From assembly GCA_028707065.1 (NCBI GenBank), contig JAQTUZ010000008.1, forward strand, positions 1 through 62,759: 62,759 bases of DNA. The letters are read 5' to 3'. The DNA is from Patescibacteria group bacterium. Its GTDB lineage: Bacteria; Patescibacteriota; Patescibacteriia; Patescibacteriales; WJLG01. The translations under genes were made by a program, and so were the position numbers. Numbering within the stretch: the stretch's first letter is position 1; the number at the start of each line of letters is the position of its first letter. Below the pieces are notes generated by a model that was not told the DNA's origin, did no database searches, and worked only from the letters and a program-made list of their open reading frames with translations. Shown piece by piece: positions 12,478-62,759 of this stretch.

Positions 12478-12527
12478 ATTCCCCTCTAGAGAGGGGTGGA
12501 TCGCCCCTGGCGAGACGGGGTGTGTTA
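12478..12527 (-). repeat. PE-A element, intergenic (HMA-fusion gene / csoR)
   Basis: attcccctctagagaggggtgg-atcgcccctggcgagac-ggggtgtgtta; core identical to the copy at 12954. Confidence 0.9.
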
Positions 12528-12556
12528 TGCCGGTCTGCCAGAAAACGTTTATTAAA

Positions 12557-12829
12557 TTATTTATTAGCCAACTTGCTCACTCTTAAAATTTCCTCGACCA
12601 TCTTCGCTTTCACCTTTTCGTTTTTGCTCGCCATCGCGTTCTTGAAGCAAGTATGCAGATGATTTTCCATCAGCTGCTGATGAGCTGATTTTAAAAGTCC
12701 GATGACCGCCAGATTCTGCTGCATGATATCAATGCAGTATTTATTCTCTTCCGTCATCTTAATAATTTTTTCCACCAGCGATTTGGCTTTTTTGAAACCA
12801 ATCAGCGCTTTTTGTTTCTCGTTAGTCAT
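12557..12829 (-). CDS. csoR: CsoR/RcnR-family metal-sensing repressor
   Basis: 90 aa; C...H-x3-C ligand pattern (KYCIDIMQQ...ENHLHTC); first gene of the cop operon; candidate operator upstream. Confidence 0.85.
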   Translation of the reverse strand: MTNEKQKALIGFKKAKSLVEKIIKMTEENKYCIDIMQQNLAVIGLLKSAHQQLMENHLHTCFKNAMASKNEKVKAKMVEEILRVSKLANK

Positions 12830-12848
12830 AAAATATAATTTATAAAAA

Positions 12849-12882
12849 ATAATTTGTAATTTTTAATTTGTCATTTGTAATT
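12849..12882 (+). repeat. R2 arm in the csoR 5' leader
   Basis: aataatttgtaatttttaatttgtcatttgtaatt. Confidence 0.75.
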
Positions 12883-12887
12883 CCCGC

Positions 12888-12908
12888 CATACCTGGGGTG
12901 GGGGTATG
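12888..12908 (-). promoter_or_regulatory. candidate CsoR operator
   Basis: catACCtggggtgggGGTatg: ATACC-N9-GGTAT with a G/C-tract centre, resembling described CsoR boxes; overlaps the predicted transcription start. Confidence 0.6.
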
Positions 12909-12913
12909 TCATT

Positions 12914-12942
12914 ATCATAAACCCTATCAAAAAAAACGTCAA
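12914..12942 (-). promoter_or_regulatory. cop operon promoter
   Basis: Minus strand TTGACG (12942-12937)-17 nt-TATGAT (12919-12914); the CsoR box starts 6 nt downstream. Confidence 0.7.
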
Positions 12943-12953
12943 GAGGGTAATAT

Positions 12954-13005
12954 ATTCCCCTCTAGCAAGAGGGGTGGATCGCCCCTGGCGAGACGGGGTG
13001 TGTTT
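12954..13005 (-). repeat. PE-A element, upstream of the cop promoter
   Basis: attcccctctagcaagaggggtgg-atcgcccctggcgagac-ggggtgtgtttt; near-identical to 12478-12527. Confidence 0.9.
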
Positions 13006-13130
13006 TAGTTTTGTTCAAGCCGAACAAGCGCAATTACATCTCGCTCGTCGCCCCCCCTCATCATGATGATCTTCTTCCCCGCCCTCTTCTTTCTCTTCGC
13101 GCGCTTCAGTTCGGGGATGATGAAATAGAC

Positions 13131-13167
13131 AATTAAGAATTATGAATTAAGAGATAAGAATTAGAGG
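13131..13167 (+). repeat. R3 'AAGAATTA-word' repeat, intergenic
   Basis: aattaagaattatgaattaagagataagaattagagg. Confidence 0.6.
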
Positions 13168-13220
13168 AGATGATATGCATGGCAAACAAATCCCCGTTAA
13201 ACCGGGGTTTTTGTTTTGTC

Positions 13221-13270
13221 TTTTTGTCATTGCGAGCCCCTGGCGTGGCAATCTCGCGCCACGCGAAAGG
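13221..13270 (+). repeat. related TGTCATTGCGAGC...GCAATC hairpin repeat
   Basis: tttttgtcattgcgagcccctggcgtggcaatctcgcgccacgcgaaagg. Confidence 0.6.
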
Positions 13271-13323
13271 AACCACGCTTGGCCTTGTCGAAGTTTTTGA
13301 AAAGTGGTAGATTTTAAATAAAT

Positions 13324-13352
13324 TTGGTTAAAATTACAAAAATAATTATATT
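13324..13352 (+). promoter_or_regulatory. promoter of the orphan gene (near-leaderless)
   Basis: TTGGTT-17 nt-TATATT, with the -10 ending 9 nt before ATG 13362. Confidence 0.55.
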
Positions 13353-13361
13353 GTAGTAGTT

Positions 13362-15071: not shown

Positions 15072-15166
15072 TTTTGGTTCCGCTACAATTTTGCCTTGGA
15101 CTGGGGCGTTTGTTTTGCGCCAAGGTGGTATAATGATTACATAGCTAATAATTAACTTTATACTTT

Positions 15167-16228
15167 ATGAATTTGTTCGAAAAATTCAACCTTAATATGC
15201 CAAAAGTTATTAAGATTGCCGGGCTTTCGCTCTTGGCGGTAATTGTGATCGTGATCCTTTTCCGGTTGGTCGGCTCTTCGATCGTGGCAATGATGCCGAA
15301 TAATCTTAGGAACACAACCAGCATTATGCCTATTCAGTCCGGCACTAGCTATGATGCGGCCAAAGGCTACGGCGAATCGGCTTCTTACGCGGCTCCCGGC
15401 ACGGCGAGTTTGTCGATCCGGAACGTTGTTTCAACTCCGGGCACGCCGATCTATCAAAATGGCGGCACGACCGGAAGCACTGCCGAGCAATTCGAAGTGA
15501 CCGAATATAATGCGACGATTGAAACGCGTCAGCTTGATAGCACCTGCGCCAAAGTTGCCGACCTCAAACCGCTAGACTACGTCATTTTCGAGAATGCCAA
15601 TAAATTTGATAATGGCTGTAATTATGTTTTTAAGGTCAAAAAGGATAAAGCCGAGGAAATTTTGGCGATCATCAAGCAGCTCAACCCCAAATATCTTTAC
15701 CAGAATACCAATACCATCAAGCAGGTCGTCGATGATTATACCAGCGAGATCGATATTCTTAAGAATCAGCTGGCATCGATCGATGATACTCTTAAGAATG
15801 CCACCGCCGCTTACGATGATATTATGAAGCTGGCTAATCAGGTGAAGGATGTTGAAAGCCTGGCTAAGATAATCGACAGCAAGATCAACACGATCCAGCA
15901 GCTGACCCAGCAGCGGATCAACATCAGTAATCAGCTCGCCTCGCTTCAGCGCTCAAAAGCCGACCAGCTTGACCGCCTGGATTATGTGAATTTCCGCGTC
16001 AGCATCACTGAAAATAAATTCGTCGACGGAAAAGTCCTGAAGGATTCCTGGGTCGCGGCGATCCAGAAATTCGTCCGCGATGTCAATCAGATCGCCCAAG
16101 ATATTTCGGTCGGCCTTGTCGCGCTCATCTTGATTATTCTGCAGTATGCGCTTTATATCATCATCCTGCTGCTCGTCGTAAAATTCGGCTGGAAATTAGT
16201 TAAGCGGATCTGGAAGGGGAAGAATTAA
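15167..16228 (+). CDS. membrane protein, likely DUF4349 family
   Basis: 353 aa; N-terminal and C-terminal TM helices flanking a central coiled-coil (ILKNQLASIDDTLKN...LASLQRSKADQLDRLDYVNFRVSITE). Confidence 0.55.
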   Translation: MNLFEKFNLNMPKVIKIAGLSLLAVIVIVILFRLVGSSIVAMMPNNLRNTTSIMPIQSGTSYDAAKGYGESASYAAPGTASLSIRNVVSTPGTPIYQNGGTTGSTAEQFEVTEYNATIETRQLDSTCAKVADLKPLDYVIFENANKFDNGCNYVFKVKKDKAEEILAIIKQLNPKYLYQNTNTIKQVVDDYTSEIDILKNQLASIDDTLKNATAAYDDIMKLANQVKDVESLAKIIDSKINTIQQLTQQRINISNQLASLQRSKADQLDRLDYVNFRVSITENKFVDGKVLKDSWVAAIQKFVRDVNQIAQDISVGLVALILIILQYALYIIILLLVVKFGWKLVKRIWKGKN

Positions 16229-16240
16229 ACGGTTTAAAAA

Positions 16241-16269
16241 AGATCGCCTGGGCTAGGCGGTCTTTTTTT
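16241..16269 (+). terminator. terminator after the DUF4349-like gene
   Basis: agatcgcct-gggct-aggcggtct followed by ttttttt; A-run upstream. Confidence 0.7.
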
Positions 16270-16428: not shown

Positions 16429-16438
16429 GAAAAAAACA

Positions 16439-17463: not shown

Positions 17464-17514
17464 AATAACCAATCCTTGCGGGTTGGTTATTGGGAATCGC
17501 GATAAATTGATTCT

Positions 17515-22263: not shown

Positions 22264-22312
22264 TAACACACCCTGCCTCGCTTACGCTCGGCACCCCTCT
22301 CGAGAGGGGACT
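22264..22312 (+). repeat. PE-A element (degenerate), intergenic
   Basis: taacacaccctgcctcgcttacgctcggcacccctctcgagaggggact; forms an inverted pair with 22341-22410. Confidence 0.8.
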
Positions 22313-22340: not shown

Positions 22341-22410
22341 GTCCCCTCTAGAGAGGGGTGGCAGTCCGCCGCCTTGTCCGCCTCGGGCGGAGGACTGACG
22401 GGGTGTGTGA
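22341..22410 (-). repeat. PE-A element with extended nested central hairpin
   Basis: gtcccctctagagaggggtgg-cagtccgccgccttgtccgcctcgggcggaggactga-cggggtgtgtga. Confidence 0.85.
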
Positions 22411-31285: not shown

Positions 31286-31416
31286 TGCGCATGATGCGAA
31301 TCTACGAATTGTTCGCGAATACTATGAATAGATTTAACGAATAACACACCCCGTCCGCGCGGCGCGGCCACCCCTCTCAAGAGGGGAATCAAAACGGTTC
31401 GCGGTATTCGCATTAT
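31286..31416. repeat. R1 hairpin (rpsD/rpoA spacer) with PE-A nested in its loop
   Basis: atgcgcatgatgcgaatctacgaattgttcgcgaatactatgaat ... [PE-A 31343-31389] ... ggttcgcggtattcgcattat. Confidence 0.75.
31343..31389 (+). repeat. PE-A element nested in the loop of an R1 hairpin (rpsD/rpoA spacer)
   Basis: aacacaccccgtccgcgcggcgcggccacccctctcaagaggggaat. Confidence 0.9.
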
Positions 31417-33251: not shown

Positions 33252-33300
33252 GTCCCCTCCGCGGGAGGGGTGGCGCCGCCTCGGCGACGGGGTGGGTTAC
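33252..33300 (-). repeat. PE-A element between rplM and rpsI
   Basis: gtcccctccgcgggaggggtgg-cgccgcctcggcga-cggggtgggttac. Confidence 0.9.
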
Positions 33301-33827: not shown

Positions 33828-33880
33828 ATTCCCCTCTCGAGAGGGGTGGACTCGCGCCGCGCGAGGACGGGGTGTGTTAC
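33828..33880 (-). repeat. PE-A element just after the rpsI stop
   Basis: attcccctctcgagaggggtgg-actcgcgccgcgcgagga-cggggtgtgttac. Confidence 0.9.
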
Positions 33881-37398: not shown

Positions 37399-37427
37399 AT
37401 ATTAGCATAAATAATACATTTTGTCAA
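37399..37427 (-). promoter_or_regulatory. extended -10 promoter for ORF 36935-37342
   Basis: Minus strand TTGACA-17 nt (ending TGC)-TAATAT. Confidence 0.65.
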
Positions 37428-37429
37428 CG

Positions 37430-39040
37430 ATGAAAAGGAGGGTGGCTATTTTTATCGCTTGCTGGTTTTTTGCCGGCGGCATCGTTCTTGCTTCGTTTTT
37501 GCCGAAAGACTGGCTGTTTTTCGGCCTTTATTATTTTAGCGCGGCGATAATATTTTCAACCATTGCCGTCGTGTGCTGGAAGAAGAAAAACACGCGCGCC
37601 ATTTTGATTTGGGCGGCTTTTTTGTTTTTGGGAATCTGGCGATTCTCGATAAGTTTGCCGATCGATTCACCAAATAATATTTGGCATTACAACGGCCAAA
37701 AAAGAGAATTGATCGGCCTGGTTTCTTCTGAACCGGCGACGAAAGGGAAAAGTCAGAAGTTAGAAGTATTTCCCCTCCTTTTAAAGGAGGGGGTAGGGGT
37801 GGTTATTGATAGGCAAGCCGATTCGATTGCAACCACTTCCCAGAACCACCCCCAAACCCCTCCTTCGGAAGGAGGGGGGATCCTTGAAAAGGAGGGGCTG
37901 GGGGTGGTTCGGGGTGAGGTTGCAGGCAAGGTCTTGGTCATCGCCGCCGCTTATCCGCAATATGATTATGGCGACGTTCTAAAAATATCTTGTACGCTTA
38001 AGCGTCCGGATAAGTTGGACGATTTTGATTATGAAAAATATTTGGCCGGCAAGGGAATCTATTCGACTTGCAACTTTCCCAAAATAGAAATTTTGTCAGA
38101 TAAAAATTTATCACCGCCGCTATTGGCAAAGAAAAAAAGCCTGACGCGTTTTAGCTGGCTTTGGGGCGGGATTTATCAAATCCGAAAAAAATTAAGCGGC
38201 ACGATCGATAACGGCTTGGCCGAACCGGAAGCCGGACTGCTTAAAGCTTTTATCTTGAACGATCCGACCGTGCCTGATGATTTGAGCGATATTTTCCGCC
38301 AAAGCGGCTTATCGCATATCGTCGCCATTTCCGGCACGCATATCAGCTTGGTGATCGCCATTATTTTTTTCTGCTTGTTATTCCTGGGTTTGAATCGCCG
38401 GCACGCTTTTTGGTTTTGCGTGCCCATTATTTTATTGTACGTGGTGATGGTTGGAGCGCCTGCCTCGGCAACTCGGGCGGGGATTATGGGTTTTTTGGTT
38501 TTGTTGGCTATGTATCTGGGACGTTTGGCGCGATTAGATTATACTTTGGCGCTCGCCGGCGCGGGCATGCTTTTGTTTAATCCGATGCTCGTTATCGCGG
38601 ACGCCGGATTCCAATTATCTTTTTTGGCCGTTCTAGGCATGATTTATCTTTACCCGATTTTTGATAAATGGTTATCAAGGTTTTACGAAATAAAAAACGT
38701 AACACACCCCGCCAAGCGAGGCGCTTGGCACCCCTCTCGAGAGGGGATTTTAAAAATAATTTGCCAGACGGCAGCACTGACGATCGCGGCGCAAGTTTTT
38801 ACCGCGCCGATCTTGATTTTCGGCTTTCACCAAATTTCGCTGGTCGCGCCGATCGCCAATCTGTTCGCGCTTTGGGCCGCGCCATTTATCATGATCACCG
38901 CTTTCATCGCCATGGGCCTAACCTTAATATTTCCCGCCGGTGCAATATATTTTTTCCTGCCCGCGGATATTTTAGTAAAATACTTGATTGCCGTCGCGCA
39001 AATTTCGGCGAGCTTGCCATTTGCTTATTGGAAGTTTTAA
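37430..39040 (+). CDS. comEC: ComEC/Rec2-family DNA uptake channel, lacking the metallo-beta-lactamase domain
   Basis: N-terminal OB-like region (GKVLVIAAAYPQYDYGDVLKISCTLKRP), competence domain (FRQSGLSHIVAISGTHISLV...PASATRAGIM); two repeat-derived in-frame inserts. Confidence 0.85.
   Translation: MKRRVAIFIACWFFAGGIVLASFLPKDWLFFGLYYFSAAIIFSTIAVVCWKKKNTRAILIWAAFLFLGIWRFSISLPIDSPNNIWHYNGQKRELIGLVSSEPATKGKSQKLEVFPLLLKEGVGVVIDRQADSIATTSQNHPQTPPSEGGGILEKEGLGVVRGEVAGKVLVIAAAYPQYDYGDVLKISCTLKRPDKLDDFDYEKYLAGKGIYSTCNFPKIEILSDKNLSPPLLAKKKSLTRFSWLWGGIYQIRKKLSGTIDNGLAEPEAGLLKAFILNDPTVPDDLSDIFRQSGLSHIVAISGTHISLVIAIIFFCLLFLGLNRRHAFWFCVPIILLYVVMVGAPASATRAGIMGFLVLLAMYLGRLARLDYTLALAGAGMLLFNPMLVIADAGFQLSFLAVLGMIYLYPIFDKWLSRFYEIKNVTHPAKRGAWHPSREGILKIICQTAALTIAAQVFTAPILIFGFHQISLVAPIANLFALWAAPFIMITAFIAMGLTLIFPAGAIYFFLPADILVKYLIAVAQISASLPFAYWKF
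37769..37910. repeat. cluster of three PE-B elements inside comEC (in-frame)
   Basis: tttcccctccttttaaaggagggggtaggggtggtt (reverse), gaaccacccccaaacccctccttcggaaggagggggga (forward), tccttgaaaaggaggggctgggggtggttc (reverse); translated ...FPLLLKEGVGVV...NHPQTPPSEGGGILEKEGLGVV. Confidence 0.85.
38699..38749 (+). repeat. PE-A element inside comEC (in-frame, sense)
   Basis: gtaacacaccccgccaagcgaggcgcttggcacccctctcgagaggggatt; translated VTHPAKRGAWHPSREGI. Confidence 0.9.
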
Positions 39041-39416: not shown

Positions 39417-39570
39417 GCTGATTTTTTACCTTTTTTGTCAATAGCCAAGTTTAAATGGAAAAGGTATAATTTATAGACACAGAGCATGGAACATAGAGCA
39501 AAGAGCATAAAATCCGAGAACTATTTTTTTTGTGTTCTTTGATCTTTGTTCTATGTTCTCCTACCAAACG

Positions 39571-41082
39571 ATGGATTTTCGTTTCAAATTAAGAATAGTC
39601 TGGATAGCTGCGCTGGCCGTGGCGGTTTTTGCGCTGGCGTGGCTGGCTATAATTCCTTTTGGCAAGATTACTTACTTGACAAATTTCAAGGGTTTTAATG
39701 ATTTCATCGGCAAGCTAACGCCCATGGAAAGAATTGTTGCCGAAAAAGACGGCACGCAAGATATTATCGGCGATCCGGCTTATTTTTCTTTGCGCACCCC
39801 GCGGCCATTTAATCAAGCTTTGCTTTCCGTAAAATTCCAAGTTGATCCGAATCTGCCGATCGTCGAGGCCGGAGTTTCCAAGGACGGGCGCACCTGGCAA
39901 TATGATTTGCAGCCGCTCTATAATGCTAAATTGGAAGAGTTGATGGAAAACTGGTTTGTATTAGATGATTCTGTTTTACCAGCGCTAACCCACCCCGCCT
40001 CGCCGGGCTCGGCACCCCTCCCAAGAGGGGACTCCACTGTTCTCCTGCAAAGAAATAAACAATTTGATACGATTGAAGAATTTTTAAAAAATCCTCCCGC
40101 GACCGACAAGATCGCTTTGTATAATTATGATTGGAAAACCGATTATTTATTGCCCGATTATCAGCCGCGGCAAGCTACCTCGACCATGTGCCGGCCGCTG
40201 GTCGGGGCTTATCAGTTTTATACCTACATTAAAAATGAGAATTTGTCCGATGACTTTGTTTTCCAAGATTTGAATAAAAATTTGGATCCGGACCCGATCG
40301 ATGTTTATGTTTATTATCGCGACAAATTGATTTCGAGCGAGCACCTCGACGACGATGGCATTGCTGTTGATAGCGGCGCGCAAAAACCGTGGCGGCATTT
40401 GAAGTTAGATTTGGCCAATTTGCCCGAGGGCGTTTATAAGATCACGGTGCGCGCTAATGGCGATATTGTGACGAGAACGATCACCACCGGACAAAGTAAA
40501 ATGGCTTTTATCAATGCTTTAGCGATTGCCGACGCTCCCGAAGTTTCCTGCGGCCGAAATTTTTTCACGGACGGGCGCACGCTGGCGGTTCAGACTTCGC
40601 ATCCGGATAAATTAGGCAAGATAACCATCAATAAAAATAACGGCAATTCATTTTCCGGCGTTGAGTTGAACATCGATCAAACTTATAAAATATTTACGGT
40701 TAACGATTTGCCGCCGGCTGGCAGTCAGATAATTCTTAATAATGACGGAATTTCGCTTTCCGGCGATGGGCTTTTTTCCCTGTCGGCCGAACAAATGATC
40801 GATCCGCGCGTTAAATCCGTTGATGCCAAATTCGATGCCGACCAGGAAGGCGTGGATTATGTTTTGGCGCGTTATACGCCGCCGGTCAAACAAGGCGATT
40901 GGCTGGTAGCGCAAGCTAACTTTGATCTAACCAACGCTTTCCGGATGTGGAATAAGTATTATTTTTTGATCTCCGCGCCCGGGTTATCCGCCAGCGATCA
41001 GCTTAACGATCAGGTGCGGATCAAGGAAATTAAGGTTGATTTGACCGGCACTTCGTTGTGGAAAAAAATATTTAAGAAATAA
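39571..41082 (+). CDS. hypothetical membrane-anchored extracytoplasmic protein
   Basis: Start trimmed to ATG 39571 (MDFRFKLRIVWIAALAVAVFALAWLAII); one TM then ~470 aa; carries one in-frame PE-A copy; precedes the GT-C cluster. Confidence 0.6.
   Translation: MDFRFKLRIVWIAALAVAVFALAWLAIIPFGKITYLTNFKGFNDFIGKLTPMERIVAEKDGTQDIIGDPAYFSLRTPRPFNQALLSVKFQVDPNLPIVEAGVSKDGRTWQYDLQPLYNAKLEELMENWFVLDDSVLPALTHPASPGSAPLPRGDSTVLLQRNKQFDTIEEFLKNPPATDKIALYNYDWKTDYLLPDYQPRQATSTMCRPLVGAYQFYTYIKNENLSDDFVFQDLNKNLDPDPIDVYVYYRDKLISSEHLDDDGIAVDSGAQKPWRHLKLDLANLPEGVYKITVRANGDIVTRTITTGQSKMAFINALAIADAPEVSCGRNFFTDGRTLAVQTSHPDKLGKITINKNNGNSFSGVELNIDQTYKIFTVNDLPPAGSQIILNNDGISLSGDGLFSLSAEQMIDPRVKSVDAKFDADQEGVDYVLARYTPPVKQGDWLVAQANFDLTNAFRMWNKYYFLISAPGLSASDQLNDQVRIKEIKVDLTGTSLWKKIFKK
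39986..40033 (+). repeat. PE-A element inside ORF 39571-41082 (in-frame, sense)
   Basis: taacccaccccgcctcgccgggctcggcacccctcccaagaggggact; translated LTHPASPGSAPLPRGDS. Confidence 0.9.
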
Positions 41083-48154: not shown

Positions 48155-48305
48155 ATTCCCCTCCCTGGAGGGGTGCCGAGCCCGGCGAGGCGGGGTGGGC
48201 TATTCCCCTCCGCGGGAGGGGTGGACGCGCCGCGCGGACGGGGTGGGTTTCATTGGCGTTAATTCCCCTCCGCGGGAGGGGTGCCCGAAGGGCGGGGTGG
48301 GTTTC
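48155..48305 (-). repeat. three tandem PE-A elements upstream of the DUF559 gene
   Basis: Copies at 48155-48200, 48202-48251 and 48262-48305, each attcccctcc(ctgg/gcgg)gaggggtg-[GC palindrome]-cggggtggg(c/ttt). Confidence 0.9.
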
Positions 48306-48330
48306 AATAAAAAATTAATCAAGGAGGGGA

Positions 48331-48747
48331 ATGTTTAAAAGAAAAATATTACCATGCAACCCGAAGTTAATTGAGCTGGCCAAAAAATTAAGGAAGCAGG
48401 GGATTTTATCCGAAGTAATTTTGTGGAATCATTTGAAAGGCGGCAAACGGTTTGGCCATGATTTTCATCGCCAAAAACCAATTGATAATTATATTGTTGA
48501 TTTTTTCTCGCCCGACTTAATGTTGGCGATTGAAATCGATGGAATATCGCACGGATATAAATTTGATCAAGACGAAGAAAGAGATAGGCGGCTGGGGACG
48601 TTAGATATTAAAGTTTTAAGATTTACCGATAGCAGTGTTAAAAATAATTTGGACGGAGTTTTAGATGAAATAGATTGCTGGATAAAAGAAAATTTTCAAA
48701 CCCACCCTGCCACCGAGGCGGTGGCACCACTCCCAAGAGGGGAATAA
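48331..48747 (+). CDS. DUF559 (Vsr/restriction-endonuclease-like) domain protein
   Basis: LRKQGILSEVILWNHLKGGKRFGHDFHRQKPIDNYIVDFFSPDLMLAIEIDGISH...LDIKVLRFTDSSV; last 15 codons and the stop come from a PE-A repeat. Confidence 0.85.
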   Translation: MFKRKILPCNPKLIELAKKLRKQGILSEVILWNHLKGGKRFGHDFHRQKPIDNYIVDFFSPDLMLAIEIDGISHGYKFDQDEERDRRLGTLDIKVLRFTDSSVKNNLDGVLDEIDCWIKENFQTHPATEAVAPLPRGE

Positions 48748-48796
48748 TGCCCACCCCGTCCGGCCAGGGGCCGTCCACCCCTCCAGGGAGGGGAAT
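48698..48796 (+). repeat. two tandem PE-A elements at/after the DUF559 3' end, inverted relative to 48155-48305
   Basis: 48698-48745 aaacccaccctgccaccgaggcggtggcaccactcccaagaggggaat (supplies THPATEAVAPLPRGE-stop); 48749-48796 gcccaccccgtccggccaggggccgtccacccctccagggaggggaat. Confidence 0.9.
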
Positions 48797-53142: not shown

Positions 53143-53784
53143 ATGAAAAGAGTCTTTATAATTCATGGCTGGGAGGCCGATCCGGGAAGCAATTGGTTCC
53201 CTTGGTTGAAAGATGAGTTAATCAAAAAAGGCATTGAGGCCGAAGTTCCGACCATGCCGAATTCGGCGCATCCTCTGTGCGCCGAATGGGTTGCTTATTT
53301 AAAAAAGATCGTCGGCAAAACCGACAAAGATACTTTTTTAGTCGGTCACAGCTTGGGCGTAATCGCTATTTTACGTTATCTGGAATCAATGGCGGCGAAG
53401 GAAAAGATCGGCGGCGCGATTTTGGTCGCCGGTTTCCCTGAACCATTGCCGGCAAGCGACGGAGGAGATTTTTCCGAACTGAATAATTTTTTTGCTAAAC
53501 CGTTGGATTATGAAAAAATAAAAAATAATGTCAGTAATAGACCCACCCCGCCTCCGTCAGGGACGGAGTCACCCCTCCCGGGGAGGGGACAAATTTTTTC
53601 CGGCTTCGTGGCAATCCACTCCGACAATGATCCTTATGTGCCGCTGGCCAACGGAAAAATTTTGCAAAAAAAATTAGGCGCTGAGTTGATTGTGATTTCG
53701 GGCGGCGGCCATTTGAATGCCGGCGACGGATTTTTCCAATTTCCTTTGGTCTTAGAAAAGATTTTGCGATGGACTAATAATTAA
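53143..53784 (+). CDS. YdeN/RBBP9-type alpha/beta serine hydrolase, copy 2 (with PE-A insert)
   Basis: MKRVFIIHGW, GHSLGV, SDNDPYVPL, GGGHL; tandem paralogue of 52569-53138 with a ~19-aa extra segment encoded by PE-A. Confidence 0.75.
   Translation: MKRVFIIHGWEADPGSNWFPWLKDELIKKGIEAEVPTMPNSAHPLCAEWVAYLKKIVGKTDKDTFLVGHSLGVIAILRYLESMAAKEKIGGAILVAGFPEPLPASDGGDFSELNNFFAKPLDYEKIKNNVSNRPTPPPSGTESPLPGRGQIFSGFVAIHSDNDPYVPLANGKILQKKLGAELIVISGGGHLNAGDGFFQFPLVLEKILRWTNN
53539..53590 (+). repeat. PE-A element inside hydrolase copy 2 (in-frame, sense)
   Basis: agacccaccccgcctccgtcagggacggagtcacccctcccggggaggggac; translated RPTPPPSGTESPLPGRG; absent from the tandem paralogue. Confidence 0.9.
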
Positions 53785-53831: not shown

Positions 53832-56573
53832 ATGGAAACAGCATATCCGCTTAGTGAAAAAAAATTAGATAAGATTTTTAATCCGCAAACGATTGCGGTG
53901 ATTGGCGCTTCCGACCGCGAAGGCGGCGTTGGTAATGCGCTGATGAAGAATCTGATCGGCAATAATTTCGGCGGCATTGTCTATCCGGTCAATCCTAACC
54001 GCGCCAGCGTGCAGGGGATCAAAGCTTATCTGAGGATTGGCGATATTCCTGATAAGATTGATCTGGCGATCATTGCCACTCCGGCGCCGACCGTTCCGGG
54101 CTTGGCGCTCGAATGCGGACAGGCCGGCGTGGCCGGTTTGATCATCATTTCTTCCGGTTTTGATGAGATCGGCGCCAAGGGCAAGAAAATGAGCGAAGAA
54201 ATTTCCTCGATCGCCAAAGAATACGGCATGCGCGTCATCGGTCCGAATTGTTTGGGATTTATCCGGCCGTCGATCAATCTGAACGCCAGTTTTGCCAACA
54301 AGATGGCTTTGCCCGGCCATATCGCTTTTATTTCCCAGTCCGGCGCGCTCTGCACTTCGATTTTGGACTGGTCGATCAAGAACAATGTCGGTTTTTCCCA
54401 GTTCGTTTCGATTGGTTCGGCGATCGATATCACTTATCATGATTTGATCGATTATTTTGGTGATGACCCGCACACTTCCAGTATCTTGATCTATATGGAG
54501 TCGCTCACTGAAGCGAGGAAATTTATGAGCGCGGCGCGAGCATTTTCTCGCCAGAAGCCGATCGTGGTCTTGAAAGTCGGGCGCACTGAAGCCGGATCAA
54601 AAGCCGCCAAATCACATACCGGCGCCTTGACCGGCAATGATGCGATTTATGACGCGGCTTTTGAGCGCGCCGGCATCATCCGGGTTGATGGCGCGCTGGA
54701 TCTTTTCCATGTCGCCAAGATGCTTTCGATGCAGTCACGGCCGGCGGATAATCGCGTGGCGGTAATCACTAATGCCGGTGGACCGGGCGTAATTGCGGCT
54801 GATCGTTTGGCTTTGAAAGGCGGGCGGTTGGCGCCATTAGCCCACACTACCGTTTCCGAATTAAAAAAAATTCTGCCGTCGGCGGCTTCCACGGCCAATC
54901 CAGTGGATATTTTAGGTGATGCTGATCCGCACCGTTATCGCGCCGCGGTGGAATTATGTCTGGCTGATCCGAACGTTGACGCGGCTTTGATAATCTTGAC
55001 GCCGCAGGAAATGACCAGTCCGACCGACGTGGCGCGGCAGATCGTTTCGATCAAGAATAAAACCGGCAAGACCATGTTCGCGTCCTGGATGGGCGGCGAT
55101 GACGTGGCCGAAGGCCGGGAGATTTTGGAAAAAGGTCATATCCCGATCTACCGCACGCCGGAAGAAGCCGTGGATATATTTATGTACGTGGATAGTTATC
55201 GGCGGCGTCTGGAATTTTTGAAAGAAACTCCGGGTTCGGTGCCGCACGCTTTCAAGCCCAAGACGGAAAAAAATCGCGAGCTCGTGGAAAAAGTCATCGC
55301 GGACGGCCGGACAGTAATGACTGAAGCCGAGGCCAAGGAAATGATCGCTAATTATGGAATTCCGGTAGCCAAGAATGGCACGGCTAATTCGGCGTCTGAA
55401 GCCGGTGCGATCGCCGAAGGGATCGGAATGCCTGTGGTGATGAAAATTTTGTCGCCGGATATTTTACACAAGACCGATATCGGCGGCGTGAAATTGAATA
55501 TCAATTCGCGCGCTGAAGCGGAAGCGGCTTATCATGAAATCATGATTAACGTCCGGAAACCCACCCCGGCCTTCGGCCACCCCTCCCGAGGAGGGGAAGG
55601 CGCCAAGAAAGGCGCGCCCAAAGCCAAGATCGATGGTATTTTTATCGAGGCGATGACCAAGAAGCGCTATGAACTTTTGATCGGCTGCAAGAAAGATGAG
55701 GTTTTCGGGCCGGCGATAGTTTTCGGCATGGGCGGCGTGGCCGTGGAAGTCTTCCGCGACACGGCCGTCGGCTTGCCGCCGTTGAACATGTCTTTGGCTC
55801 TGAAGATGATTCAGGAAACGAAAATTTATAAATTACTCGAAGGTTATCGCGGCATGCCCGGAGTTGATATCGAATCGATCCAATTTTTGCTTTATAAATT
55901 CGCTTATCTGGTCGCTGACTTTCCCGAGATCAAGGAATTGGATATTAATCCTTTCGCGGTTGATGAGAACGGGGGAGTGGTGCTTGATGCCAAAGTTATT
56001 CTGGATGAAAAAGTCTTGGGCGTAAAACACAAACCATACGCTCATCTGGTAATTTCGCCTTATCCCAAAGAATTTGAAACAACTTTGAAGATCAAGGATG
56101 GCAAGAAGGTTTTTGTCCGGGCTTTGCGCCCCGAGGATGAAGAATTAGTGGCCGGATTCTTCCATCATCTTTCACCCGCGGCGCAAAAGGACCGTTATTT
56201 GCAAGTGATCAAAAAGATCGACCATGAGTTTTTATTGCGCTTCACTCAGAATGATTATGACCGCGAGATCGGTTTGGAAGCGGAAATTTCCGCGGGCGGC
56301 AAAAGCGAAATGATCGGCGCCGTCAGATTGGTCGTTGATCCTTATAACGAGAATGCCAAGCTGGCGGCGGTAGTCGTTGACCGCTGGCAGAATAAAGGCC
56401 TGGGCAGCCAATTGATCGATCATATGCTCTCGATCGCTAAAGCTCGCGGCATCAAAAAAGTCTGGGGAGAATTCTTCCCGACCAATAAACGGATCATCAA
56501 AATTTTAGAGAAACGAAATTTTACCATCAAAGCCCGGGGGAAGATTATGATCGGAGAGCTGGAACTAGAATAA
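53832..56573 (+). CDS. ADP-forming acetyl-CoA synthetase (alpha+beta) fused to a C-terminal GNAT acetyltransferase (Pat/PatZ-like architecture)
   Basis: IAVIGASDREGGVG CoA-binding N-terminus, KSHTGALTG His loop, ATP-grasp (PVVMKILSPDILHKTDIGGV), C-terminal GNAT (VVVDRWQNKGLGSQLIDHM). Confidence 0.9.
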   Translation: METAYPLSEKKLDKIFNPQTIAVIGASDREGGVGNALMKNLIGNNFGGIVYPVNPNRASVQGIKAYLRIGDIPDKIDLAIIATPAPTVPGLALECGQAGVAGLIIISSGFDEIGAKGKKMSEEISSIAKEYGMRVIGPNCLGFIRPSINLNASFANKMALPGHIAFISQSGALCTSILDWSIKNNVGFSQFVSIGSAIDITYHDLIDYFGDDPHTSSILIYMESLTEARKFMSAARAFSRQKPIVVLKVGRTEAGSKAAKSHTGALTGNDAIYDAAFERAGIIRVDGALDLFHVAKMLSMQSRPADNRVAVITNAGGPGVIAADRLALKGGRLAPLAHTTVSELKKILPSAASTANPVDILGDADPHRYRAAVELCLADPNVDAALIILTPQEMTSPTDVARQIVSIKNKTGKTMFASWMGGDDVAEGREILEKGHIPIYRTPEEAVDIFMYVDSYRRRLEFLKETPGSVPHAFKPKTEKNRELVEKVIADGRTVMTEAEAKEMIANYGIPVAKNGTANSASEAGAIAEGIGMPVVMKILSPDILHKTDIGGVKLNINSRAEAEAAYHEIMINVRKPTPAFGHPSRGGEGAKKGAPKAKIDGIFIEAMTKKRYELLIGCKKDEVFGPAIVFGMGGVAVEVFRDTAVGLPPLNMSLALKMIQETKIYKLLEGYRGMPGVDIESIQFLLYKFAYLVADFPEIKELDINPFAVDENGGVVLDAKVILDEKVLGVKHKPYAHLVISPYPKEFETTLKIKDGKKVFVRALRPEDEELVAGFFHHLSPAAQKDRYLQVIKKIDHEFLLRFTQNDYDREIGLEAEISAGGKSEMIGAVRLVVDPYNENAKLAAVVVDRWQNKGLGSQLIDHMLSIAKARGIKKVWGEFFPTNKRIIKILEKRNFTIKARGKIMIGELELE
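55557..55599 (+). repeat. PE-A element inside the ACD-GNAT gene (in-frame, sense)
   Basis: aaacccaccccggccttcggccacccctcccgaggaggggaag; translated KPTPAFGHPSRGGEG. Confidence 0.9.
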
Positions 56574-56972: not shown

Positions 56973-58676
56973 GTGAAAATAATTAGAAAAAATAAGGAAA
57001 TCGCGGTTTTTATCCTGTTTCTGATCATTGGGTTGGCCATTTACGCCAACTCTTTTGGCAACCAATTTTTTTGGGATGATGATGACGTGATCGTCAATAA
57101 TGTCTATGTCCAAAATTTTCAGCTTGATAAATTTTTCACTCAGAACGAAATTGCCGGCGCTTTCGGGCAAATTTCTAATTACTGGCGTCCGCTCCTGCTG
57201 GTTTCTTTCGCGCTTGATTATAAAATTTGGGGATTGGTTCCGTTCGGCTTTCATCTGACCAATACGCTGCTGCATATTTTGGCCGCTTGGCTGGTATTTA
57301 TTTTTTTATATCAACTGATCGAATTATTTTTGGCCAGGCAAACCGCCGCAGAAGAACCACCCCCAGACCCCTCCTTCCGAAGGAGGGGGGCGCTGCTGGC
57401 ATTTTTGCCGGCGCTGTTTTTTCTGATCCATCCGCTGCAGACCGAAGCCGTGACTTACGTTTCCGGCCGCGGCGATCCTTGGGCGGCCGTCTGGTCGCTT
57501 TTGACCTTGATTTTTTATGTTGTGTTTCGCAACAACGGCCGATGGCGCTTTTATTGGGGGGCTTTGATTTTTTTCGCCGCCGCGCTTTTAGTGAAAGAAC
57601 AGGCGATTTATCTGCCTTTGCTTATCCTTTTGCTTGAAGCGGTTTTTTATTCCATCGATTCCCGCAAAAAAATCATAAAACTTATCAAAAATGTCGCGGC
57701 TTTCTTTGCCTTGGCGGCGGCTTATTTTTTGGCGCGTTTCACTTTCTTGAATTTTAATCATTTTTTATCCGGGTCGGTTAATTTGGTAAACAGTGATTAT
57801 CATCGCAGTCTGGCGCAAAGAGCTTATACTTTTTGTTTGGTGAGCTTGGATTACCTGCGCTTGCTTCTGGTGCCGACCGGTTTGCACATGGAAAGAGAAA
57901 TTACGCCAGTGGAGCATTTTTGGTCCTGGCCGGTAATTACTTTTATCATTTTGGTTGCGGTGGCGGCGATCGTCGCGTTTAAAACCTGGCGGAAAAATCG
58001 GCTCGTGGCTTTCGGGCTCGGCTGGTTCGCCATTACTCTCTTGCCCCATGCCAATTTAGTGGAAACCAACCGGCCGATGTATGAGCACTGGCTTTATTTG
58101 CCTATGGTCGGTTTTTGGCTGGCGCTGTTTTGCCTGATTTTCATTTTGGCGCCGGCAGAGTCTCGCGTAGCGGACTCTGCCGATTTGCCGGGATTTCGGC
58201 AGAGTCCCCGAGGCGGGAGACTCTGCCGGAGCAAATCGATCAGAGTCTGGCTGAAGCGGATTTTTTGTGTTATGCTGATCGCTTGCGTGATTTTTTTCTC
58301 GTTTTTGACGATCAGGCGCAACCGCGACTGGCATGACCCGATAACTTTTTACGAAAAAAATTTAAGCTACGTGCCCGACAGTTTTATTGAGCGCACTAAT
58401 TTGGGCATGGCTTATGACGCTGTCGGACGCTTCGCGGAGGCGATCGTTCAATACCGAACGGCGATCGCCATCGCTGATATTTATCCGCAAGCGCATTATG
58501 ATCTGGCCAATAGTTTGGTGAACGTGAAGCAATACGACGAGGCGGAAAAGGAATATCGGCGCGCCATCGAGATGAGCCCCAAATTCGGCCTGGCGTATCA
58601 GAATTTGTACAATCTTTATATGTATCTTGGCGAAAAAGATAAAGCGGAAAAAATATTAAAAGAAATTAACAAGTAA
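56973..58676 (+). CDS. TMTC/PMT_2-like GT-C membrane glycosyltransferase with C-terminal TPR repeats
   Basis: GTG start; first loop NQFFWDDDDVIVNN; more than 10 TM; C-terminal TPR units (NLGMAYDAVGRFAEAIVQYRTAI..., AHYDLANSLVNVKQYDEAEKEYRRAIE...). Confidence 0.75.
   Translation: MKIIRKNKEIAVFILFLIIGLAIYANSFGNQFFWDDDDVIVNNVYVQNFQLDKFFTQNEIAGAFGQISNYWRPLLLVSFALDYKIWGLVPFGFHLTNTLLHILAAWLVFIFLYQLIELFLARQTAAEEPPPDPSFRRRGALLAFLPALFFLIHPLQTEAVTYVSGRGDPWAAVWSLLTLIFYVVFRNNGRWRFYWGALIFFAAALLVKEQAIYLPLLILLLEAVFYSIDSRKKIIKLIKNVAAFFALAAAYFLARFTFLNFNHFLSGSVNLVNSDYHRSLAQRAYTFCLVSLDYLRLLLVPTGLHMEREITPVEHFWSWPVITFIILVAVAAIVAFKTWRKNRLVAFGLGWFAITLLPHANLVETNRPMYEHWLYLPMVGFWLALFCLIFILAPAESRVADSADLPGFRQSPRGGRLCRSKSIRVWLKRIFCVMLIACVIFFSFLTIRRNRDWHDPITFYEKNLSYVPDSFIERTNLGMAYDAVGRFAEAIVQYRTAIAIADIYPQAHYDLANSLVNVKQYDEAEKEYRRAIEMSPKFGLAYQNLYNLYMYLGEKDKAEKILKEINK
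57354..57390 (+). repeat. PE-B element inside the TMTC-like gene (in-frame)
   Basis: gaaccacccccagacccctccttccgaaggagggggg; translated EPPPDPSFRRRG. Confidence 0.85.
58154..58227 (+). repeat. PE-F: two GGCAGAGTC...GACTCTGCC hairpins inside the TMTC-like gene (in-frame)
   Basis: ggcagagtctcgcgtagcggactctgcc (58154-58181) and ggcagagtccccgaggcgggagactctgcc (58198-58227); translated AESRVADSADLPGFRQSPRGGRLC. Confidence 0.85.
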
Positions 58677-60428: not shown

Positions 60429-60430
60429 GG

Positions 60431-60459
60431 TTGACAAAAGTTGGATATAGTGGTAATGT
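60431..60459 (+). promoter_or_regulatory. extended -10 promoter for ORF 60514
   Basis: TTGACA-17 nt (ending TGG)-TAATGT. Confidence 0.65.
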
Positions 60460-60513
60460 TAATTGTTAGGCTGAACATTAAATCTAAAAACATTTTTCAG
60501 GAGGAGGTTCGTC

Positions 60514-60873
60514 GTGTATTTAATAAGTAAAATTGAGCTCGCCAGAAAGTTGAGGACAATGCCACCAATGAGCGAAGATCAAGGGCTGATTAATGCATTT
60601 ATTGGTTATTTTGCAACCCAGCTTGAAGAGCATTGCAACAAGATTCCTTTAATTTCCTATGCTTCCTTTGTTTCCGAGCTTGAATCGACTATCAAGGCAT
60701 TGCTCAAGAAAGACATCGCCAGCTTTGCTGATAATGAGAATTTGCAGTTGGTCGTTGCCGGCCTAAAAGCGTTCACCGAAATCGAACGGCAGATCAAGGA
60801 TTTTTTTAAACTAGAGCAAGTTCTTAGGTGGTTGGTAGGACATGCCAACTACGTCGAATTCATCTCGGAATAA
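60514..60873 (+). CDS. hypothetical protein (119 aa)
   Basis: GTG start after AGGAGGAGG; promoter 60431-60459; terminator 60901-60929. Confidence 0.5.
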   Translation: MYLISKIELARKLRTMPPMSEDQGLINAFIGYFATQLEEHCNKIPLISYASFVSELESTIKALLKKDIASFADNENLQLVVAGLKAFTEIERQIKDFFKLEQVLRWLVGHANYVEFISE

Positions 60874-60900
60874 TAAGCAAATTATAAATTTTTTATCCAG

Positions 60901-60929
60901 CTGGCATCTTGCGACGGTGCCAGTTTTTT
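60901..60929 (+). terminator. terminator after ORF 60514-60873
   Basis: ctggca-tcttgcgacgg-tgccag followed by tttttt. Confidence 0.7.
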
Positions 60930-60942
60930 ATTGATTAAATAT

Positions 60943-61027
60943 CTCGTAACCCATAGCTCATAACCCGTAACACTTTGACATTTATTTGACTGAAAAAGAG
61001 TTATGAGTTACGAGTTGCGGGTTATGA
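60943..61027. repeat. R4 full hairpin upstream of lepA
   Basis: ctcgtaacccatagctcataacccgtaacac ... gagttatgagttacgagttgcgggttatga. Confidence 0.85.
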
Positions 61028-61104
61028 AATGGCGGTTGACCGATTAGCAAAAAAACCTTAATATTAAAGTCTGGAAGGCAAGAAGCCTTCTTTATTTATC
61101 AATC

Positions 61105-62759
61105 ATGAAGAACATCAGAAATTTTTGCATCATCGCCCATATCGACCACGGCAAATCCACTTTTTCCGACCGGCTGCTGGAATTGACCGGCACGATCGAA
61201 AAGCGGAAAATGCGCGAGCAGTTCCTCGATAAATTGGATCTGGAGCGCGAGCGCGGCATCACCATCAAATTAAAACCCGTCACCATGCATTGGGAGGGGT
61301 ATATTTTGAATTTGATCGATACGCCCGGGCACGTGGATTTTTCTTATGAAGTTTCCCGCTCGCTCGCGGCCGTGGAAGGCGCGATTTTACTGATTGACGC
61401 CACCCAGGGAATTCAGGCGCAGACTTTAGCTAATTTATATTTGGCAATCAATGAAAATTTGACTGTCGTGCCGGTGATCAATAAAATCGATCTGCCGGCC
61501 GCTGATGTGCCGAAAGTTAAAAAGGAAATAATTCATCTGATCGGCTGCAAAGAAGAAGAAATTTTATTGGCTTCGGGCAAAACCGGCGAAGGCGTGGAAC
61601 AAGTCTTGCGCGAAGTGATCGCCAAGGTTCCGGCCCCGGATAAATTTGTTAGATGTTCTGATTTGCCGCGTGGAATATCCGGCGCTAACCCACCCCGTCA
61701 GGCCGACGCGGCCTGCCACCCCTCCCGAGAGGGGAATCCCACCCGGGCGCTGATCTTTGATTCCAATTATGACGAATACAAAGGCGTGGTGGCCCATGTC
61801 CGCGTGATGGATGGCGCTTTTAAAAAAGGCGATAAGATAAAATTGTATAACACCAAAACCGTCAGTGAAGCTTTGGATGTGGGAATTTTTAATCCCGAAT
61901 ATCAGCCGACCGGAGAATTAAGCACGGGCGAAGTCGGCTATATCGTGACCAGCTATAAGAACGTTACTGAATGCGCGGTCGGCGATACGGTTACGACCGT
62001 GGCTGATTTTGATAAGATCGAACCGTTGAAAGGTTATGCCGAGGTCAAACCCATGGTCTTTGCCGGAGTTTTTCCCCGCGAAGGCGATGATTTTCAGGAA
62101 TTGCGCGAAGCCATGGATCGCTTAAAATTGAACGACGCCTCGCTCTCTTATGAACCGGAACATTCCGAAGCTTTGGGTTTTGGTTTCCGCTGCGGCTTTT
62201 TGGGGCTTTTGCATCTGGAAATTTTTCAAGAAAGATTGAGCCGCGAATTCAATTTGAATCTGATCGTTACGGTGCCAAGCGTGGCCTATAAAGTTTTCAA
62301 AAGAAACGGCGAAGAAGTAATTATTCGTACGCCGCAAAAACTTCCTGGCCCAACCGAGATCGACCACGTTGAAGAACCTTGGGTAGCGCTCGACGTCATC
62401 GTGCCCAAAGATTATATCGGCAAAGTAATGGAACTGGCCGTGGATAAAAAGGGAATTTACAAAAATACCGAGTATCTTGACGAGTCGAGAGTAATTTTGC
62501 ATTATGATCTGCCCATGGCTTCGATCTTGACTGATTTTTATGATAAGATAAAAAGCGCGAGTTCCGGATTTGCTTCGATCAATTATGAATTTTTGGATTA
62601 TCGTCCGGCTAAAGTGGTCCGGCTGGATATTTTGGTGGGCGAAGAGCCGATCGAAGCATTATCGACGATCGTTTATGAAGATGAGGCTTTCCGGCAAGGA
62701 CGGGCCGTGGTGGAAATTTTGAAAGATACCTTGCCCCGGCAGATGTTTGTGGTTAAATT
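61105..62759 (+). CDS. lepA: translation elongation factor 4 (LepA), 3'-truncated by the window end
   Basis: Not in the ORF track because it is open-ended. IRNFCIIAHIDHGKST, DTPGHVDF, NKIDL, then ALIFDSNYDEYKGVVAHVRVMDG...; carries an in-frame PE-A copy at the G-domain/domain II junction. Confidence 0.95.
   Translation, partial: MKNIRNFCIIAHIDHGKSTFSDRLLELTGTIEKRKMREQFLDKLDLERERGITIKLKPVTMHWEGYILNLIDTPGHVDFSYEVSRSLAAVEGAILLIDATQGIQAQTLANLYLAINENLTVVPVINKIDLPAADVPKVKKEIIHLIGCKEEEILLASGKTGEGVEQVLREVIAKVPAPDKFVRCSDLPRGISGANPPRQADAACHPSREGNPTRALIFDSNYDEYKGVVAHVRVMDGAFKKGDKIKLYNTKTVSEALDVGIFNPEYQPTGELSTGEVGYIVTSYKNVTECAVGDTVTTVADFDKIEPLKGYAEVKPMVFAGVFPREGDDFQELREAMDRLKLNDASLSYEPEHSEALGFGFRCGFLGLLHLEIFQERLSREFNLNLIVTVPSVAYKVFKRNGEEVIIRTPQKLPGPTEIDHVEEPWVALDVIVPKDYIGKVMELAVDKKGIYKNTEYLDESRVILHYDLPMASILTDFYDKIKSASSGFASINYEFLDYRPAKVVRLDILVGEEPIEALSTIVYEDEAFRQGRAVVEILKDTLPRQMFVVK
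61686..61737 (+). repeat. PE-A element inside lepA (in-frame, sense)
   Basis: taacccaccccgtcaggccgacgcggcctgccacccctcccgagaggggaat; translated ANPPRQADAACHPSREGN just before ALIFDS. Confidence 0.9.

Follow-up and report, generated by a model that had tools for sequence, protein, structure and literature searches.

A probable triplex-class DNA repeat linked to DUF559 nuclease genes recurs along a Patescibacteria contig

Copies of PE-A in the window

The 62,759-nt stretch analyzed here (the window: contig JAQTUZ010000008.1 of assembly GCA_028707065.1, forward strand) belongs to a Patescibacteria genome from a landfill metagenome, an organism known from metagenome DNA contigs alone. It carries 18 copies of a short interspersed element, PE-A, which lie between and within genes and flank a DUF559 nuclease gene on both sides. 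In each copy a conserved hairpin (CCCCTCY/XGAGGGG) is followed by a central module, variable yet self-complementary, and then by the tail GGGGTGKGTT, for a total of 39-68 nt. We define the F strand as the G-rich sequence T-CCCCTC-(3-6 nt)-GAGGGG-T-(central module)-GGGGTG(T/G)GTT and the R strand as its complement, the latter being the coding-sense orientation used in an earlier examination of these letters (the sequence-only reading); the strand sign given for each copy is that of its F sequence, with nine copies on the + and nine on the - strand. The window contains 12 matches to GGGGTGKGTT, with 0.12 expected, and 20 to CCCCTC-N2-12-GAGGGG, with 0.02 expected. A covariance model built exclusively from 43 copies in other phyla recovered 17 full window copies at E <= 4e-7, together with the long-hairpin copy at 22342 and, more weakly, three copies of a related short family (family B). 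Long stems appear as insertions in the covariance-model alignment of the window copies, and stems were therefore analyzed directly. An Rfam search of the window at gathering and permissive thresholds returned no match, with chance-level scores at E >= 2 only, and a tRNA scan found none.

Eleven of the 18 copies are intergenic. Upstream of the HMA/DsbD gene (11127..12470, -), a T-type copy at 12480..12526 (+; hairpin TCGCC-CCT-GGCGA) ends 10 nt before the ATG. The same central hairpin recurs in the intergenic copy at 12956..13004 (+), where loop 1 spans 6 nt, and the pair may be a recent duplication of one copy. These two copies, with F on the + strand in both, bracket a small - strand open reading frame (ORF; ~12564-12830) that adjoins heavy-metal genes and by eye resembles a metal repressor of the CsoR/RcnR type. 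Two further copies form a hairpin-to-hairpin pair: the one at 22266..22310 (-) has the hairpin GCCGAGC-GTAA-GCGAGGC, with tandem G.A pairs, and the tail AGGGTGTGT, and its intergenic partner at 22342..22409 (+), upstream of a UvrD-exonuclease gene, has a long central hairpin of about 40 nt. The copy at 31344..31387 (-; CCGCG-CCG-CGCGG) is also intergenic. The ribosomal protein S9 gene has a G-type copy upstream (33253..33298, +; CGCCG-CCT-CGGCG), whose F strand is the sense strand of the flanking + ORFs, and another directly past its stop codon (33830..33878, +; CTCGCG-CCG-CGCGAG). Three tandem copies (48157-48200, 48204-48249 and 48264-48303, all +) lie immediately upstream of the DUF559 gene, and two more (48700-48743 and 48749-48794, both -) overlap or follow its 3' end; the tails of all five face the gene, and the copy at 48700-48743 is degenerate, with a GAGTGG arm and an AGGGTG tail.

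Six copies lie in frame within genes. They are found in a P-type ATPase gene (8467..10818, -; T-type copy at 9219..9267, +, with hairpin CCGCCG-CCT-CGGCGG closed by G-C plus tandem G.A), in ComEC (37421..39040, +; copy at 38702..38747, -, hairpin GCCAAGCG-CCT-CGCTTGGC), in ORF 39532..41082 (+; copy at 39988..40031, -, hairpin GCCGAGC-CCG-GCGAGGC with tandem G.A), in a Ser_hydrolase gene (53143..53784, +; copy at 53541..53589, -), in an ADP-forming acetyl-CoA synthetase gene (53832..56573, +; copy at 55559..55597, -) and in LepA (61048..end, +; copy at 61688..61735, -, hairpin CAGGCCG-CGT-CGGCCTG). The copy at 48700 encodes the last DUF559 codons, and all seven intragenic copies are R-sense to the mRNA. 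The eleven stem-loop strings listed in the sequence-only reading were all located at or beside the positions assigned to them, the 9216 copy falling outside the interval, starting at 12478, under which they had been grouped.

Family B consists of short forms. One, at 37771..37804 (+), lies in frame in the N-terminal part of ComEC and reads CCCCTCCTT-TTA-AAGGAGGGG followed by the linker GTA and the tail GGGGTGGTT, with no central hairpin; its tail is a 9-position mirror of the arm. Another (37844..37897, hairpin CCCCTCCTT-CGG-AAGGAGGGG at 37857-37877) has a mirror tail on both sides, AACCACCCC upstream (+ strand) and GGGGTGGTT downstream, and the third (57355..57389, -) is in frame and R-sense within a TPR protein ORF (56973..58676, +). 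In two places (12470-12500 and 48318-48333) a gene starts right after the end of an R-sense element, and GAGGGG or GGAGGGG stands at the Shine-Dalgarno position of those two genes (GAGGGGAATATAAAATATG and GGAGGGGAATG).

The mirror tail and known triplex repeats

The tail of PE-A relates to the conserved hairpin by a mirror rule. When the tail 5'-GGGGTGK is set antiparallel to the purine arm 5'-XGAGGGG, where X is the last base of loop 1 and K the seventh base of the tail, G stands opposite G throughout, T opposite A, and K opposite X. Exact copies show G/G at X/K in 103 cases and A/T in 63, with one exception; when K is not presupposed, the counts are G/G 266, A/T 201, A/A 6 and other 23, so that the rule is kept in 473 of 496 copies. 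The pattern is alike in four independent sets (element-centred loci, DUF559 loci, viral contigs and the window). The seventh arm pair of PE-A may be C-G, T-A or T.G around the invariant CCCCTC(Y)/(X)GAGGGG, and K tracks X, the purine, rather than its pyrimidine partner Y: the combination T,G,G, with Y = T opposite G, was seen 64 times. The same rule governs about ten unrelated arm families, among them AGGGGGG>GGGGGGT, AAGGGGG>GGGGGAT, AGAGGAG>GAGGTGT, AGGAAGG>GGAAGGT, AGGAGGGA>AGGGAGGT, GGGAGAGGG>GGGTGAGGG, GGGAGAAGGGG>GGGGATGAGGG, GGGGGAAGG>GGATGGG and, in the window, family B (AAGGAGGGG>GGGGTGGTT). Permutation gave a mean of 134 mirror matches where 495 were observed, and 24 where a second comparison had 57.

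Judged from base order, this arm and tail pattern is the signature of an intrastrand DNA triplex of the purine (reverse-Hoogsteen) motif, which PE-A itself would be expected to form. A pyrimidine-motif triplex on the C-rich strand was considered and rejected, since the tail has A where T would be required, and it is thus the G-rich strand that would fold. These results change the meaning of the GGGGTG hexamer that had been described as flanking the variable hairpin on both sides. The hexamer is literally present on both; the left one, however, is the end of the purine arm of the first hairpin plus the first linker bases, its TG is not kept in short forms of the element, and the right one belongs to a tail that mirrors the purine arm under triplet rules and is not a plain direct repeat.

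Repeats of this architecture, named BoxC, PIT and TMECO, have been known in Escherichia coli since the 1990s. Intrastrand triplex motifs were reported in thousands of bacterial genomes by Holder et al. 2015 (PMC4666352), who cite Hoyne & Maher 2000 on such elements. The E. coli elements comprise a C-rich arm, a loop, a G-rich arm, a 3-nt loop (TTA or CCG) and a second G-rich block, and the isolated TMECO strand forms a triplex by circular dichroism (CD) and nuclear magnetic resonance (NMR), with melting at 70-82 deg C (PMC4666352). Purine-motif triplexes are stated not to form in RNA, TMECO is stated to be always intergenic, with 23 BoxC copies per genome, and no transposase, integrase or other mobility function has ever been found near it (PMC4666352).

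PE-A shares with this class, whose hosts include Enterobacteria and Cyanobacteria, the order on one strand of C-rich arm, loop, G-rich arm, loop and mirroring G-rich block, the placement of G opposite G and of A opposite T or A, and a multi-copy, interspersed and highly conserved distribution. It differs from TMECO in sequence (CCCCTCY/XGAGGGG/GGGGTGK, with 7 triplets where TMECO has 9), in a loop 2 made of T plus a variable hairpin (11-45 nt, compared to 3 nt in TMECO) and in its presence in frame within genes. The TMECO consensus CCCTCNCCC-N3-6-GGGNGAGGG-N3-GGGNGAGGG is not matched by the arm and tail of PE-A; the GGGAGAGGG>GGGTGAGGG copies met here are TMECO-type, and true TMECO-type copies were seen in other loci only (L052, L075, L083, L107 and the YcjD loci discussed below). 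By its layout, then, PE-A is assigned to the known structural class of intrastrand purine-motif triplex elements as a new sequence family. A likeness also exists to recurrent repeats of Methanomicrobiaceae that combine putative G-quadruplex sequences with C-tracks and whose hairpin takes up a G-rich third strand in antiparallel orientation, a fold in equilibrium with G-quadruplex (G4) in K+ (PMC8044849). These too are intergenic G-rich repeats beside a complementary C-run with a third-strand fold, but their C-run lies 3' of the G-runs, their hosts are archaeal, and neither a variable hairpin nor a linked gene has been described for them (PMC8044849).

The central module and the strand that folds

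The sequence-only reading had proposed that the central module varies in sequence while remaining self-complementary, and this was confirmed. A central hairpin is present in all 18 window copies when tandem G.A pairs are admitted, and the summed length of perfect Watson-Crick stems is 94, compared to 58.6 +/- 3.8 in shuffled modules, a value reached by none of 1000 shuffles. Individual window copies are weakly significant in these shuffles, the modules being short and G+C-rich. In the 43 copies of equal length taken from other phyla, pairing holds in 98.1% of cells, both sides change in four of the five central pairs, and the covariation score was reached by none of 500 shuffles. Modules differ even between two copies flanking one DUF559 gene, and related copies show compensatory changes. 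Because sequence and length vary, self-complementarity stays and most copies are intergenic, the data support the view that a folded nucleic-acid structure, rather than the sequence or an encoded peptide, constrains the module.

The AGG triloop that had been thought conserved is a local feature. In R orientation the window loops are AGG in 8 of 18 copies (two of them the identical copies at 12480 and 12956), CGG in 5, TTC in 2, and ACG, TTAC and CGA in one each, and the F-strand loops of 197 copies in other phyla are dominated by GAA (64), GTA (20), GCA (19) and GGA (7), among others. The CCT loop on F, which reads AGG on R, occurs almost exclusively in the window and in related Patescibacteria; closure of the loop by C-G on F is general, at 186 of all 232 folded copies. 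A lack of covariation and of loop conservation had been named as what would tell against a selected structure: covariation stands, and loop conservation fails. In a Candidatus Falkowbacteria contig (L185), the R copy after a DUF559 gene is homologous to the window copy at 48749-48794 and has the same CGGCC-AGG-GGCCG hairpin, with the tail GGGGAGG in place of GGGGTGG, an A*A for T*A swap at a triplet opposite A.

The joint between arm and tail in PE-A is a single T followed by a hairpin whose G...C base pair abuts the tail, often with tandem G.A pairs adjacent (TGGA...GAC). In most elements beside DUF559 genes the purine arm is instead joined to the tail by short linkers of 2-5 nt (TTA, CAA, TA, TT, ATTTA), and hairpin-expanded joints also occur in BoxC-type families (L382, L388, L389, L404, L415, L421 and L423). 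Since the short forms lack it and BoxC-type families also carry expanded joints, the central hairpin is an optional insert in loop 2 that has recurred independently in BoxC-type families.

Mismatches reveal which strand folds. Non-Watson-Crick pairs on F were counted after 138 distinct modules had been given a flush, symmetric fold free of scoring: G.T outnumbers A.C by 21 to 3 (p = 3e-4) and G.A outnumbers C.T by 66 to 4. Such G.T and G.A pairs stabilize the F strand and would disrupt R, and GNA loops are closed by C-G on F. Nearest-neighbor DNA folding likewise places the energy of F below that of R in 17 of the 18 window copies, with the tail always unpaired. The selected fold is thus on the G-rich F strand, antisense to the orientation first considered, and in genes that contain a copy it is therefore not carried by the mRNA. 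The earlier claim that structure, not sequence or peptide, is selected is borne out; strand, loop and the meaning of the flanks had been misread.

This asymmetry bears on the possibility that the central palindromes are mutational products, generated by snap-back or template-switch synthesis where polymerases stall on a G-rich repeat, with their structure unselected. In favor of such an origin, PIT elements are reported to block DNA polymerase in vitro and an extension stop was observed directly before a TMECO (PMC4666352), the stems are short, G+C-rich and weakly significant one copy at a time, and the divergence of modules around a single DUF559 gene suggests rapid turnover. Neutral decay, however, should yield as many A.C as G.T pairs and as many C.T as G.A, contrary to the counts above; the loops are strand-biased to GNA, the hairpins close flush with G-C after a single T, and changes between related copies are compensatory. 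We consider this explanation unlikely, while noting that a mutational process may be the origin of the modules and selection maintain them later.

The same observations weigh on an AGG-triloop RNA stem-loop in the sense transcript, acting on mRNA stability, translation or processing. The six in-frame window copies and the one in a related acetyl-CoA synthetase gene (L121) all share one orientation to the mRNA, the R strand also folds into two hairpins, and some copies adjoin start codons, with GGAGGGG at the Shine-Dalgarno position. Yet the mismatches are of types tolerated on the opposite strand only, intergenic copies occur in both orientations to their flanking genes, AGG is rare outside the window lineage, the mirror tail is left unexplained, Rfam has no match, and the F-strand triplets are of the purine motif, not formed by RNA (PMC4666352). 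We give an RNA role little credence.

Nor do we find it probable, to an even smaller degree, that the G-rich strand forms a G-quadruplex or G-hairpin dimers which the flanking GGGG runs serve. The stretch GAGGGG ... GGGGTGGG does supply two to three G-runs, the related repeats of archaea interconvert between triplex and G4 in K+ (PMC8044849), and CD spectra of TMECO resemble those of parallel G4, but NMR identified a triplex, not G4 (PMC4666352). The T-type tail (GGGGTGTGTT) has only two G4 runs, families with GG runs only (AGAGGAG>GAGGTGT, AGGAAGG>GGAAGGT) keep the mirror rule, and a quadruplex needs neither the correspondence of A to T or A nor the X/K covariation.

Insertion, the DUF559 gene and a proposed mechanism

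PE-A copies are true insertions. At 55559-55597, 51 nt of the acetyl-CoA synthetase gene are missing from four orthologues (73-87% protein identity), in a fifth (L121) the same loop harbors an independent copy shifted by a few codons, and orthologues of the Ser_hydrolase lack 22 aa (66 nt) at 53541-53589; absence from orthologues was established for these two insertions, the four further in-frame copies being ORFs that run through the element. Metagenome contigs pile up over the element at 55558-55597 to a depth of 222, compared to about 9 around it, with breaks at 55558 and 55597/8. Around 55467-55593 of the window, contig word depth jumps from about 9 to 222 over the element and many landfill contigs end at its borders, from which it follows that the repeat is abundant in the community and breaks assemblies. 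In one related contig, 55535-55649 (115 nt) is replaced by 61 other letters.

Within long stop-free (stop-to-stop) frames of low-GC loci, which are not verified genes, R-sense copies outnumber F-sense ones by 45 to 16. Stop codons were rejected as the cause of this bias: by hand translation R-sense copies are open in 3/3 frames and F-sense copies in 2-3/3, a difference insufficient for 45 vs 16. The bias might instead arise because transcription would allow F to fold where it is the non-template strand. Translational bypass between the two CACCCC motifs was also dropped, every intragenic copy being open in frame. That the element is selected as a Pro/Gly-rich peptide module (...THP...HPSxEG...) would agree with its in-frame copies in six genes and at the DUF559 C-terminus, and with similar tails in many DUF559 proteins, but is highly improbable given that 11 of the 18 copies are intergenic, that the peptide changes with the hairpin, that the reading frame of the tail part varies from gene to gene, and that orthologues function without the insert.

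We found no target-site duplication, flank matches of 2, 3 and 4 nt occurring in 9, 2 and 0 of 167 copies, and no terminal inverted repeats within PE-A; 98% of copies have a T immediately 5' of CCCCTC. PE-A does not qualify as a miniature inverted-repeat transposable element, having no target-site duplication and ends that are not inverted copies of each other. It resembles REP/REPIN repeats and their RAYT genes in being a short palindromic repeat in hundreds of dispersed copies, with one associated gene between inverted copies, head-to-head doublets (22266/22342 in the window, and pairs in Binatia) and a single-stranded DNA (ssDNA) fold as presumed substrate; it differs in its third-strand tail, in the occurrence of the same sequence family in many phyla, and in its linked gene, which encodes a Vsr-fold PD-(D/E)XK nuclease (DUF559, PF04480) and not an HUH/Y1 transposase. 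Rickettsia palindromic elements (RPE) are likewise small palindromic repeats in frame in conserved genes of a reduced genome, where the peptide they add is tolerated and is missing from orthologues, but PE-A has no sequence similarity to them (the sequences of RPE-1 to RPE-8 themselves were not compared), is not lineage-restricted and has a mirror tail. RPEs are about 100-150 nt long, compared to 39-68 nt for PE-A, and differ in host (Rickettsia), size and architecture.

The PE-A motif is present in at least 120 stretches from many phyla. Ninety-three viral-contig stretches from IMG/VR (L252-L344; for instance L274, L318, L321 and L324) also carry it, in some of them 6-14 times within about 10 kb; these stretches could be proviral, could derive from host DNA, or could be a route by which the repeat spreads horizontally. 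In Binatia (L005, L026, L032, L065, L088, L107 and L112), R-F doublets about 12 nt apart have their hairpins facing and are preceded by a conserved TGATG(n)AAAAGG, a shared feature that points to a longer composite unit there. Two stretches of DATJQC01 (L121 and L044), labelled Candidatus Nanoarchaeia, contain the same repeats and an acetyl-CoA synthetase 87% identical to that of the window; the label looks like a binning or labelling error.

The window DUF559 gene (48331..48747, +) encodes the invariant residues of the family, and the nearest solved structure to its product is the endonuclease-like protein 3HRL. Three F copies lie upstream and two R copies at or after the stop, all with tails towards the gene, and the last codons (THPATEAVAPLPRGE) are read from the copy at 48700. 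Many of 120 DUF559 homologues also end in element-coded peptides, such as HTP..., THP...PPLSRGE and HPSQEGN. We applied a strict detection (at least 6 bp of hairpin with no mismatch, and an exact mirror) to a first set of 80 DUF559 loci from many phyla. Of 76 loci, 55 have an F-type element whose end lies within 200 nt upstream; of 78, 53 have an R-type element beginning at the stop; and 64 of 74 have one or the other, with a background near zero elsewhere in the flanks. A second set, the best 80 YcjD-like loci, has elements in 69 of 80, including 53 R-type copies that start at the stop; many are of the TMECO type with a CCG loop, and BoxC-type copies (GGGAGAGGG-CCG/TTA-GGGTGAG) flank these genes as PE-A flanks that of the window. 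The connection to the DUF559 product suggested in the sequence-only reading is thereby backed across phyla. The DUF559 gene ycjD of E. coli K-12 is followed by a BoxC about 180 nt downstream, and a degenerate BoxC lies at its stop; given 23 BoxC copies per genome, the chance of one lying so close is estimated at about 0.003. In that genome (L251:5030-5840; NC_000913.3 1351029-1351839), ycjD ends by reading into CCCTCTCCC, and a partial second copy of its own 3' end follows downstream, before the full BoxC (CCCCTCGCCCCTCTGGGGAGAGGGTTAGGGTGAGGGG) about 180 nt off. The best-80 list includes Escherichia, Shigella, Enterobacter, Leclercia, Kluyvera and Klebsiella and no Salmonella, such a list being no proof of absence; Salmonella is the genus for which a complete lack of TMECO is reported.

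No gene other than DUF559 is consistently linked to these repeats, and the link spans about ten repeat families and two divergent DUF559 clades. When ORFs around the 120 element loci listed were clustered without bias, no family was enriched, the clusters spanning at most 8 loci and consisting of ordinary paralogues, and our literature searches found no paper linking DUF559 or ycjD with repeats. The linkage to inverted repeats makes DUF559 a first candidate mobility enzyme for triplex repeats.

On this evidence we judge it likely that PE-A is a short interspersed, insertion-competent DNA repeat of the intrastrand purine-motif triplex class (BoxC/PIT/TMECO) linked to DUF559. In its proposed mechanism, the F strand, when single-stranded, would fold at 5'-CCCCTCY-nn-XGAGGGG into a hairpin, and the tail 5'-GGGGTGK would fold back antiparallel on the purine arm as a third strand, forming the triplets G*G-C (four times), T*A-T, G*G-C and K*X-Y. 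The central module would sit in the loop joining purine arm and third strand, a joint of 2-5 nt in short forms, and its sole requirement may be to close on itself and so bring the third strand back to its target. Self-closure would explain the free sequence and length, the compensatory change, the flush closure and the unusually stable ssDNA loop types, C-GNA-G elsewhere and CCK in the window lineage. The element spreads by insertion, with in-gene copies surviving in frame in tolerant protein stretches, the folding strand being mostly the template strand.

Several observations weigh against this interpretation. With 7 triplets and a self-paired loop 2 of 11-45 nt, PE-A lies beyond the 1-6 nt loop limit by which such motifs are defined in ITxF (0-10 nt in an earlier search), a range that accommodates family B and the short forms adjacent to DUF559; that limit is a search setting, not a structural requirement. 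The X/K link could partly reflect two co-inherited subfamilies, the G-rich strand could form G-quadruplex-type structures in K+ instead, in vivo dimethyl sulfate footprinting of TMECO saw no protection (PMC4666352), and the CCT/CCG loops of the window lineage are left unexplained. As for the nuclease, a DUF559 gene lies within 4 kb in 3 of the 120 element loci among the matches listed and near the element in 0 of the 93 viral stretches. Most elements are thus solitary, and action in trans must be assumed. The first DUF559 set was ranked with a query whose tail is itself element-coded, a mild bias for 3' copies that touches neither the 5' copies nor the YcjD set, and, rather than moving the repeats, DUF559 could be a passenger, one that they stabilize or that homes into them.

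More tentatively, we put forward as possible that Vsr-fold nucleases of the DUF559/YcjD type mobilize intrastrand-triplex repeats or home into them. Such an enzyme would recognize the folded ssDNA triplex and nick at the boundary beside the 98%-conserved T.

In-frame colonization of genes and a systematic linkage to DUF559 look to be unreported features of the triplex-repeat class. The window shows the class to tolerate a free-form hairpin in its second loop, to insert in frame in conserved genes (LepA, P-type ATPase) of a candidate-phyla-radiation bacterium, and to be tied to a small nuclease gene, DUF559. For annotation, the element explains recurrent Pro/Gly-rich tails and inserts in predicted proteins, as well as metagenome contig breaks at repeats, and with ycjD beside BoxC in E. 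coli the question is directly testable in a model organism. If the proposed role of the nuclease holds, a nuclease gene with inverted triplex ends would constitute an unrecognized structure-specific mobile element across bacterial phyla, with the loop-2 hairpin as its freely evolving accessory.

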